Part shown: piece after piece, positions 9,701 to 13,096 of the stretch
Position numbering within the stretch: position 1 is the stretch's first letter
How the letters are laid out: each line of letters begins with the position of its first letter
Assembly (NCBI GenBank): GCA_965368975.1
Contig: CBDUPA010000047.1
Coordinates: 1-14,917 of the forward strand
From: an uncultured bacterium
GTDB taxonomy: Bacteria; Acidobacteriota; Thermoanaerobaculia; Multivoradales; JAHZIX01
DNA: 14,917 bases
Reading direction: 5' to 3'
Position numbers and translations under genes: made by a program
Notes under the pieces: generated by a model
Databases searched by the model: none
What the model was told of the DNA's origin: nothing
The model's input: the letters and a program-made list of their open reading frames with translations, nothing else

Positions 9701-12700
9701 CAAAATCGCCCACTGAGGCACGCTCTCGGAAGCGTCCGTCGCGTGCTCTACGGCGGCGAAGCCGGCGACCCGGAGCCGCTGCGGCGCCTGCTGGAAAGCC
9801 ATCGCGGTCCGGGCGCGCTGCTGCACATGTACGGTCCCACCGAGGCCACCGTGTACACGGCGGGCAGCTGGGTCGGGGGTCGCGGACGCACGCCGGCCCA
9901 GCTCGATCACGCAACCGCCCTTGGCTTGCCACTCGGCCGGCCACTCGACGGCACCCGTCTGCTGTTGCTCGACACCCAACTACAACCGCTTCCAGCGGGC
10001 GTCGCTGGTGAGCTGTGCGCCGGGGGCGACCACTTGGCGCGCGGCTACCTCGGCCAGCCGGGCCAGACTGCCACCGTCTTCGTGCCAGACGCCTGGTCCG
10101 CCACGCCGGGGTGTCGGCTGTACCGTACCGGTGACCTCGCGCGCACCCTGCCCGACGGTCGAGTCTGCTACCTTGGCCGCATCGACCACCAGGTCAAACT
10201 GCGCGGCTACCGCATCGAACTCGGCGAAGTGCGGGCCGCGCTCGAACAGCACCCGCGGGTGGCCGAGGCGGCAGTGCTCGTACATCAGCTGCCGACCACG
10301 CAGGGCGGTGCCACGGCATCCGAGACGGCACGCCTGGTCGCCTATGTCGCCGGCGAGGCCGAGGCCCCATCCGGTGCCCGCCCCGACGCCGGAACCTTGC
10401 GCAGCTATTTGCTGGAACGGCTGCCCCCCTACATGGTCCCATCCTTCATCCAGGTGCTCGATGTCCTGCCGCGGACCCCCAGCGGCAAGGTGGACCTGAC
10501 CCAGCTACACAGTGACCGGCTGGAAGTGAACAATGGGACTGGGACAAACTCCGTCCCAACCACTGAAACGGCACCGACCGACCCGATCGAGCAAATCCTC
10601 GCCGAGGCCTGGGCCGACCTGCTCGCCCTGCCGCAATCGCGGCGCGACGCGCACTTCTTCGAACTCGGCGGCCATTCGCTGCTGGCGACCCGCGCCCTGG
10701 CGCGCCTGCGCCAGATGCTCGGCGTCGAGATCCCGCTGCGCGACGTCTTCGAACACCCCACTCCTGCAGCCCTGGCACCGCGTGTGCGAGCGCTGCTGGC
10801 AGCAGGCAACGGCAACGACACAGGCACGCCTGTTGCCCCTCCAACGCACCAGCCACGCGCGCCAACCCGAGCCGGTACCTGCGTCTTCCCGACCTCCTTC
10901 GGCCAGCGCCGACTGTGGTTGCTCGAACGCCTCGGCCTGGGCGGTGCCGCCTACCACATGCCGGCCGCCCTGCGGCTGCGCGGGCGGCTGGACGTCGACG
11001 CTCTGACCCAAGCCTTCAGCACCATCGTCGAGCGGCACGAGATCCTGCGCACCGGCTACCGTGACGGCAACAGCCCGACCCCAGGCAGCAGCGCACCAGG
11101 CAGCAGTGATCCAGGCAGCAGCGATCCAGGCAGCAGTGATCCAGTGCAGGTCATCCACCCGGCGAGGCCCGTGCAGGTTCCGTGCATCGACCTCCAAGCC
11201 CTGGCCGCCCCCGACCGCGACACCCTGACCCGGCAGCTGAACACCCTCGAAGCGCGCCGGCCCTTCGACCTTGGCAAACCGCCGCTGCTGCGCCTGCTCC
11301 TGCTGCGCCACGCCGACGACGACCACCTGCTGTCGCTCACCCTGCACCACATCGCTTCGGACGGCTGGTCGATCGGCGTGCTGGTGCGGGAATTGGGGGC
11401 CCTGATGCGCGTGACCTCCCGCAGGCGCACCCTGCTCCGCACCGGCAGCCCACCTGCCCCTCTGTTGGCAGATCTGCCGCTACAGTACGCCGACTTCGCC
11501 GTCTGGCAGCGGCAGCGCCTCGACGGTCCTGTGCTGCAAGCCGAAGTCGACTGGTGGCGGCGCTGCCTGTGCGGTCCCGAAGACCGCCTGCCGCCGCCGC
11601 TCCTGCTACCGACCGACCTGCCACGCCGCGCGACTGCGCCACAGCGGCAGGAGCGTCCAGAAGGCCGAGTGCAGGCCCGTCTCGACGCCGACCTGGTGCA
11701 ACGACTGTCGGCTCTCGGCCAGCGCGCCGGCGCGACACCGTTCATGGTCCTGCTCGCCGCCTTCCAGGTACTGCTCAGCCGTCTCAGCGGGCAGGAACGC
11801 TTCGCCGTCGGCACCCCAATCGCCGGTCGCACGCATGCCGAACTCGAACCCCTGATCGGCTTCTTCGCCAACACCCTGGCGTTACCCGCCGACTTGCACC
11901 TGGACAGCGACAGCTTCGACGACTTGATGAGCCGCCTGCGCGAGACGGTCCTTGGTGCCTACAGCCACCAGGAGTTGCCCTTCGAAGCCCTGGTGGAAGC
12001 GCTCAACCCCCCACGCGACCTGCAACGCACGCCGCTGTTCCAGGTCTTCTTCAACTTGGTCAACCTGGAAGCCAGTTCGCTCGAACTGCCCGGCCTGCAG
12101 CTGACGCCAGAACCGGTCGACGACGGTGTCGCCAAGTTCGACCTGACGCTCTACCTGCAAGAGGCGGCGCAGCAGCAGGGACACCGAACTCCAGACGCCG
12201 CGCTGCACCTCGACCTGCATCTCGACCTACACTACGACGCCGGCCTCTTCGATCCCGCGTCCGTGTCGGCCCTGCTGCAACGCTACTCGACCCTGCTCGA
12301 TGGCCTGGTGTCGAATCCACAACAGCGCGTGGACACGTTGCCCCTGCTGCCACCATCCGACCAAGCACAAGCCCTCCAAGGCGACCGCTGGCCGGAACCG
12401 GCACTGCTCGCAGCACGACTGCGCGAGCACCCGGCCGTTGCCGAGGCGGCGGTGGTGCCCATCGAGAGCGCGGTGGTGCCCATCGAGAGCGCGGTGGTGC
12501 CCATCGAGAGCAGAGTCGAGAGCGAGCCGGAACGCCACGTCGACCTCGACGCCTTCCTGGTGGCTCGTTCTGTCGAGCTGCCCGGTGCCCGCGTCCAACT
12601 CGACCTTGAAGCGCTCCGCCGCGACCTCCTGGCACGGCTGCCCGAGCTGCGCCAACTGCACGCCGTCGAGGCCCTACCCTACCTACAAGCGGAGATCCCA

Positions 12701-13096: not shown

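Follow-up and report, generated by a model that had tools for sequence, protein, structure and literature searches.

Subunit-ending synthetase modules that share an in-frame loss of the adenylation core in an uncultured acidobacterium

How can the last module of a peptide synthetase work, and does it work at all, when the adenylation core is missing from it? The question arises on contig CBDUPA010000047.1 (C47) of an uncultured acidobacterium of the Multivoradales (assembly GCA_965368975.1, 7.1 Mb in 59 contigs); the whole contig, 14,917 bp long, is called the window below. Its nonribosomal peptide synthetase (NRPS) gene, 3749..13096 on the plus strand, is a single open frame of 3,115 residues (TTG at 3749, with ATG at 3767 the likelier start) and reads head-C1-A1-T1-C2-A2-T2-C3-stub-T3-tail, where C, A and T are condensation, adenylation and carrier domains. 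In module 3, a short stub stands in the place of the A domain. Two sister genes of the same genome carry the same cut, which points to a kept design and not to a broken gene, and we consider it likely that this architecture is both kept and working.

In the whole 3,115-residue protein, Pfam recognized Condensation (four stretches), AMP-binding (two), PP-binding (three) and AMP-binding_C (two). Submitted alone, 10889..13096 returned Condensation (E value, 2.1e-82) and PP-binding (3.4e-15) and nothing else, with no Pfam match to AMP-binding between C3 and T3. AMP-binding_C surfaced in module 3 only when sub-pieces were searched (E values of 0.26 to 1.8; 10 to 12.7 bits, with a cut-off of 24.5; 18 residues); the stub lies below the Pfam gathering score for this family (PF13193), and a custom subdomain profile misses it too. 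The first-pass annotation, made from the letters of the sequence, had described an A core absent in frame and expected just this result, no AMP-binding and a weak AMP-binding_C; the profiles bear it out, as does the missing piece, which equals 453 residues of the uncut sister.

The remaining parts, all on the plus strand, follow one another closely. C3 (10901..12328) carries an intact HHIASDG at residues 2533-2539 (11345-11365), and T3 (12779..12991) an intact GGHSL at residue 3039 (12863-12877). Between them, the remnant of the C-A linker (QRVDTLPLLPPSDQAQALQGDRW, 12329..12391) includes GDRW at residues 2878-2881; the Trp codon, 12389-12391, is the last of the linker and runs directly into PEPALLAARLREHPAVAEAAVV. 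Both motifs and the junction Trp are sited as first annotated. The stub itself (12392..12769) comprises 126 residues of the adenylation C-terminal subdomain (Asub); its N half, a helix and a hairpin, is conserved, and its A9 region is degenerate. Having the catalytic HHxxxDG, the phosphopantetheine-accepting Ser and no working A domain between them, module 3 fits the C-A*-T (adenylation-less or truncated-A) class in these three respects.

Alignment sets the stub in register with A1, A2 and the uncut sister from the "R-I/V-E-P" of motif A8 onward. The cut coincides with the Pfam border between AMP-binding and AMP-binding_C, 11 residues after the Asp of GRxD (residue 930 in A1), which we take to be the structural hinge of the A domain. 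The earlier placement of the break at the boundary between core and subdomain therefore holds for the Pfam border and for the reading frame, but not for the presumed hinge, which the break overshoots by those 11 residues. If the hinge is where we assume, the first hairpin of the subdomain (the A8 hairpin) would be gone as well. The window stub has a degenerate motif A9 (LPxYMVP) and, in the A10 Lys column, an Arg (IPRLDV, 12695-12712). The sisters have Leu and Val there, so that this catalytic Lys, whose loss the first-pass annotation had already remarked, is missing from all three copies in the alignment. With A9 degenerate and the Lys lost, the stub is unable to support adenylation.

The sisters emerged when every long frame of the genome was scanned for a carrier motif downstream of a C motif. 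Six of the 146 pairs examined were less than 800 residues apart, and five of these six lacked an A3 motif. Two of the five, on contigs C2 and C16, lie inside their proteins as plain C-T modules joined by low-complexity linkers some 80 residues long. The remaining three are the window module and the closing modules of ORF-B (open reading frame B; 3,108 residues) and ORF-C (5,447 residues), neighboring genes on contig C8. All three share one order: the linker Trp, Leu/Pro-Glu-Pro, a helix ending in HPAV.AAAVV, the carrier, and a tail of the form DL..LL.E[IV]E.L.DDEV..RL. HHxxxDG and GGHSL are intact in each, and a 17-residue junction pattern matches these three places only in the 7.1-Mb genome. 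The copies are nonetheless well diverged (27-35% identity over the C end and stub, 19-57% in the two stub halves) and lie on two contigs with different flanks. The search for homologues with the same junction that the first-pass annotation proposed thus gave an in-frame junction in three diverged modules on two contigs of one genome. As a separate observation, A-less C-T modules with low-complexity linkers and without a subdomain stub sit inside multimodular proteins on contigs C2 (frame from 438760, plus strand), C16 (frame from 86139, reverse strand) and C3 (frame from 123517, plus strand); the genome holds roughly 110 C domains.

An uncut counterpart adjoins the cut genes. ORF-A, upstream of ORF-B on C8 and open at the contig end, closes with a complete C-A-T-tail module, its module 3, in which A8 reads ...RGFRVEPAEIEAALAEHPAVQAAAVV and A10 reads SGKLDR. 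ORF-B is colinear with ORF-A (49% identity over 2,402 columns), except for a gap opposite residues 2299-2751 of ORF-A (453 residues), after which identity is 47%. The window protein in turn aligns with ORF-B in one end-to-end alignment, at 38.5% identity, so the whole C-A-T-C-A-T-C-stub-T layout is common to both.

Are these modules maintained or decaying? We used Nei-Gojobori counts on an alignment of six modules and compared the cut modules with each other. Identity and rough dN/dS (nonsynonymous over synonymous change) were 0.42-0.52 and 0.41-0.61 for the C domain, 0.57-0.61 and 0.28-0.53 for the T domain, and 0.58-0.78 and 0.09-0.22 for the tail. For the N half of the stub they were 0.35-0.57 and 0.35-0.54, with one pair saturated, and for its A9-A10 half 0.19-0.27 and 0.66-1.11. 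In the uncut pair, ORF-A on C8 and its counterpart on contig C23, the A9-A10 half stands at 0.47 identity and a dN/dS of 0.42. Because synonymous sites are saturated (proportion of synonymous differences, 0.47-0.78), all these ratios are rough and only the contrast between segments is trustworthy. That contrast says that C, T and tail appear to be kept, that the N half of the stub appears to be kept as a fold, and that the A9-A10 half appears to be drifting. The values for C, T and the 24-residue tail in the cut modules are close to those of the uncut pair, so that on the dN/dS comparison suggested for C3 and T3 the cut modules evolve like their uncut sisters. Together with an in-frame junction found three times and motifs left intact, this conservation upholds the earlier preference for a retained architecture over simple decay. 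Close homologues do not all have a full third A domain either, a comparison made among paralogues of one genome.

How the cut came to be shared is told differently by the two halves of the module. In the careful IQ-TREE run on twelve C domains, the three C domains of the cut modules and three that precede Lys2-like A cores formed a six-tip clade (98/98), with the order (C47,(C19,(C23,(ORF-C,(ORF-B,ORF-A))))). The approximately unbiased (AU) test rejected the three cut C domains as one clade (p-AU, 0.0003), a constraint named after a first tree had been viewed. In the tree of stub plus T, the three cut units did form one clade (98/88), sister to the uncut unit of ORF-A, and the alternative with C47 outside that clade was not rejected (p, 0.335). 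Since the C tree rejects a single cut clade, the cut either spread by recombination between modules or arose more than once, and both histories would speak against a one-off accident. In the explanation favored below, module 3 would descend from a subunit-ending C-A-T-tail module with an unusual, Lys2-like A core.

The stub is also predicted to fold still like an adenylation C-terminal subdomain. Stub, T3 and tail were modelled together from an alignment of 27 rows, 24 of which are ordinary Asub-T units that may pull the model toward the Asub fold. The model reached a mean predicted local distance difference test score (pLDDT) of 91.1 and shows a helix, a hairpin, a helix and strands, then the four-helix carrier and a terminal helix. 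Its best PDB matches by Foldseek were the Asub-carrier portions of PvdL, EntF, DhbF and SrfA-C, over about 195-210 of its 237 residues (E values, 2.5e-11 to 2.2e-10). The only part of low confidence is the loop holding a perfect tandem repeat of three 21-bp copies (12449..12511, plus strand; VVPIESA units), in the hairpin of the stub. The first-pass suggestion that Asub serves as a docking surface for an A domain has lost ground. The catalytic faces are gone, one with the A10 Lys and the other, if the hinge is placed correctly, with the A8 hairpin; in addition, the A9-A10 half is nearly neutral.

Where, then, does the product of module 3 go? The tail (DLEALLAEVEDLADDEVERRLRHS, 13022..13093, plus strand), a putative docking element, is the most conserved part of the module family. 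Its pattern has 10 matches in the genome, nine of them on NRPS ends. At the other end of the window protein, before C1, lies a head (MSVKDLYRRIAALPPEKRALLGRKL..., 3767..3922, plus strand), likewise a putative docking element and common to eight other synthetase subunits of the genome; in the nine subunits it takes the form M..K[DN]LY.RIA.L.PE.RALL ahead of the first C domain. Consecutive genes on C8 have the tail on one gene and then the head on the next. Tail and head would form a putative inter-subunit docking pair. T plus tail also matched the T1 and docking domain structure of PaxA (PaxA T1-CDD, 7b2b) in Foldseek, at rank 38, an indirect hint of such binding. ORF-C is followed by a convergent Ser/Thr kinase gene and has no release enzyme after it. 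Since nine subunit ends share the tail and nine heads match it, what had been called a terminal module is terminal for the protein but probably not for the assembly line. On contig C18, a frame from 147527 (plus strand) encodes 816 residues with a docking-type head and a single C domain. Lacking both A and T, this protein may be a condensation enzyme that stands alone, for receiving or release.

Three uncut relatives of the missing core bear on how T3 might be charged: those of ORF-A module 3, of module 4 of a 4,647-residue protein on contig C23 and of one internal module on contig C19. They are of an unusual type with GHDPLLRDLF, and the best NCBIfam match of the ORF-A core after the generic NRPS model was L-aminoadipate-semialdehyde dehydrogenase (Lys2), with a score of 376 bits that falls short of the family cut-off. 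Stub plus T has its nearest uncut relative in ORF-A module 3. With positions anchored by GrsA numbering, the approximate specificity codes of ORF-A and ORF-B run in parallel, DFWPxGxVYK and then DAYxHGxTFK, with DPRPFGFQVK third in ORF-A and the stub third in ORF-B. On these three grounds, the C-domain clade, the nearest relative and the parallel codes, the A domains of the uncut sister modules are the best candidates for donors, and A2 is not. A-less modules charged by other A domains are described for viomycin, andrimid, syringomycin, yersiniabactin and WS9326A in PMC7539972.

In the explanation that we favor, and to which as a whole we give about an even chance, module 3 would be a maintained adenylation-less elongation module made up of C3, a folded but non-catalytic stub, T3 and a docking-type tail. 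T3 would receive its residue in trans, from the A domain of an uncut sister module; this could be module 3 of ORF-A, the first NRPS gene on C8, or module 4 of the 4,647-residue gene on C23. C3 would then join the T3-bound residue to the chain held on T2, and the product would go from the tail to the head of a further subunit. The stub would keep its fold, its role being limited to that of a tether or spacer. Of these points, the charging of T3 in trans by some A domain is fairly likely, and the assignment of that task to a Lys2-like sister is put forward tentatively.

Several findings weigh against this explanation. No stand-alone Lys2-like A domain occurs in the genome, all four such cores lying inside multimodular proteins, and the donor for the window gene would sit on another contig. 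The 14.9-kb contig shows no release domain, tailoring gene or other biosynthetic gene, and no orthologue, cut or uncut, was found in 5 genomes of the family, 400 of the class and 400 of the phylum or in two DNA collections. Among the cut modules, the window copy sits on the longest branch, and its module 3 contains two recent tandem-repeat expansions, perfect or near perfect. The saturated synonymous sites and the make-up of the alignment behind the model belong on the same side. Most of these observations, as well as the nearly neutral A9-A10 half, would suit a module that is dead or skipped: a deletion would have disabled it, the window copy would be a decaying paralogue, and C3, T3 and tail would be intact through slow decay or because the tail still docks the product of T2. 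We regard this as unlikely. The frame is open for 3,115 codons, none of the three copies has lost its catalytic His or Ser motif, and the C and T domains of the cut modules are about as conserved as the uncut ones, although the synonymous sites are saturated; the AU test, moreover, makes the cut form recurrent or spread by recombination.

If module 3 works, T3 could instead be charged by A2 of the same gene, which would then load two carriers, with one residue entering the product twice, in the manner of yersiniabactin HMWP2. A2 is the nearest A domain and shares a polypeptide with T3, and a single A domain serving several carriers is on record (PMC7539972). This reading is improbable in our view: in the tree, C3 falls with the C domains placed before Lys2-like A cores and not with C2, the T3 family is closest to the carriers of Lys2-like modules, and approximate codes vary among the A domains that directly precede the stubs (DALTLGMVYK, DAYAHGGTFK and DAYTHGVTFK). 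Even less credible is a non-elongating relay, with T3 never aminoacylated and C3 either transferring the chain from T2 to T3 with no residue added or joining it to a free amine. The lack of a cognate A domain in cis and the constant position of the module at a subunit end, before a docking-type tail, would agree with a relay, but C3 has the motifs of an ordinary elongating C domain and groups with those of normal elongating modules; we know of no C domain shown to pass a chain to a bare carrier thiol. Hardly any weight is left for a collapse of the assembly at about 12390. The single DNA run found yields short pieces, which cover 11900-12034 and conserved T-domain parts, with nothing across 12035-12559, the junction or the 21-bp repeat; against a collapse, the same junction occurs, always in frame, in three diverged copies on two contigs with different flanks.

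Several known systems resemble the module, each in part. The kutzneride synthetase KtzH is said to hold a C-A*-T module whose truncated A domain is bypassed by a separate A domain, KtzN, which charges the carrier. KtzH would thus share with the window module an A fragment flanked by C and carrier domains that are both intact, as well as a dependence on an A domain elsewhere. The window module differs in that no matching free-standing A domain was found, that its break falls at the AMP-binding/AMP-binding_C border, that it stands last in its subunit, and that its three copies stand beside an uncut sister. In WS9326A biosynthesis, Cal19 is a plain didomain of C and peptidyl carrier protein, with Cal22 and Cal23 as its trans-acting A domains on the evidence of gene disruption (PMC7539972). 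It is likewise an A-less C-T module in a multimodular NRPS, but its trans A genes adjoin the synthetase, whereas the window module keeps about 126 A residues and has no dedicated trans A gene nearby. The same source has the A domain of HMWP2 incorporate three cysteines, one of them in cis, and so offers a parallel to the proposed Lys2-like donor: one embedded A domain for several carriers, including some on another protein. Sharing by HMWP2 was shown experimentally; in the window system it is proposed from sequence, and the carriers would be paralogues that lost their own A core. Lastly, StsA of the stratospherulide synthetase holds a pseudo-Asub in two separate stretches around a ketoreductase (PMC10510592). 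Like the window stub, it is a non-catalytic Asub-like fold kept in an NRPS module, but it lies beside a working A core, which the window module lacks.

Outside the genome, the exact junction was not encountered. Profile searches gave no match across it in five genomes of the family, among the matches listed (none began before profile position 87), in 400 other genomes of the class with five candidates scored per genome, or in 400 other genomes of the phylum with eight candidates scored per genome. The DNA pattern W-x-E-P-x5-R-L-x2-H-P-A-V, which is strict and would miss diverged junctions, hit 7 stretches in a collection of genome contigs and 13 in one of metagenome contigs, all out of frame or non-NRPS on translation and taken as chance hits. 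Word-based protein searches returned ordinary multimodular NRPSs, none with this junction; they also missed the two paralogues of the genome, so their silence is weak. With no orthologue found, the conservation described above rests on paralogues of a single genome.

Comparable fragments are not rare among public proteins. The 186 proteins from the word-based searches, a sample biased toward the query, contain 681 C domains; in 13 cases the next carrier comes 97-157 residues further on, and inspection by eye shows these linkers to carry A-domain fragments with various breakpoints. P0052 has the subdomain only, cut within a few residues of the window cut and with Asp in the A10 Lys column, and P0070 and P0048 have only A9-A10 left between C and T. 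P0019, P0028 and P0029, which represent clusters of 2 to 64 member sequences and are Streptomyces NRPSs by their source names, each hold two modules with only A6-A10 between C and T. Like the window module, all of these combine intact C and T domains with an A core deleted in frame and a remnant kept; unlike it, they are independent events with other breakpoints, at 27-33% identity to it, and none has been studied, judging by source names. A search of the full-text literature brought up no account of a module whose A domain is reduced to the C-terminal subdomain; the main texts covered include those of PMC7539972, PMC11253843, PMC10510592, PMC13464078, PMC7242659 and PMC11355689.

The rest of the window adds little on the pathway. 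A GNAT acetyltransferase gene (13173..13988) follows the NRPS stop codon at a distance of 77 nucleotides, also on the plus strand. Its start is overlapped by a promoter-like site, and the first ~140 residues of its product match no Pfam family. The enzyme could act in tailoring or self-resistance. A GspH-type pseudopilin with an N-methylation motif (14199-14867, minus strand) and a BNR/sortilin-type repeat protein (1535-3544, minus strand) are not biosynthetic. The contig end, at about 53% G+C (the NRPS gene has about 70%), holds what looks like a toxin-antitoxin pair: an MNT-type nucleotidyltransferase (70-384) in head-to-tail overlap with the frame of a HepT-like RNase (188-724). Within C3, a 15-bp tandem repeat of 4.5 copies (11081..11149, plus strand) inserts PGSS[AD] units into a loop, an insert that none of five sister modules has. 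On C8, the three consecutive NRPS genes (loci L002 and L001, minus strand) resemble diverged repeats of one unit, the approximate A-domain codes standing in the same order in ORF-A and ORF-B and being repeated in ORF-C with one extra pair, which suggests a peptide built of similar blocks.

From such blocks a more speculative picture can be drawn, which we think improbable: an assembly line of repeat units that saves on adenylation, in which one Lys2-like core (of ORF-A module 3 or the C23 sister) would charge its own carrier and those of the three cut modules, the conserved N half of the stub being the handle that lets the foreign core recognize these carriers. If true, this would be a natural system in which subunits share an A domain and keep a remnant dedicated to recognition. 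The window module belongs to an already known kind, that of the carrier charged from elsewhere, and what it adds is the presence of the uncut parent form and three cut descendants in one genome. These provide a natural comparison of what a carrier charged elsewhere needs and of whether the leftover subdomain is needed. Modules without an activating domain of their own break the rule by which peptide products are predicted from gene order; the case changes nothing in principle, but it would be useful for predicting products and for engineering synthetases with shared activating domains.

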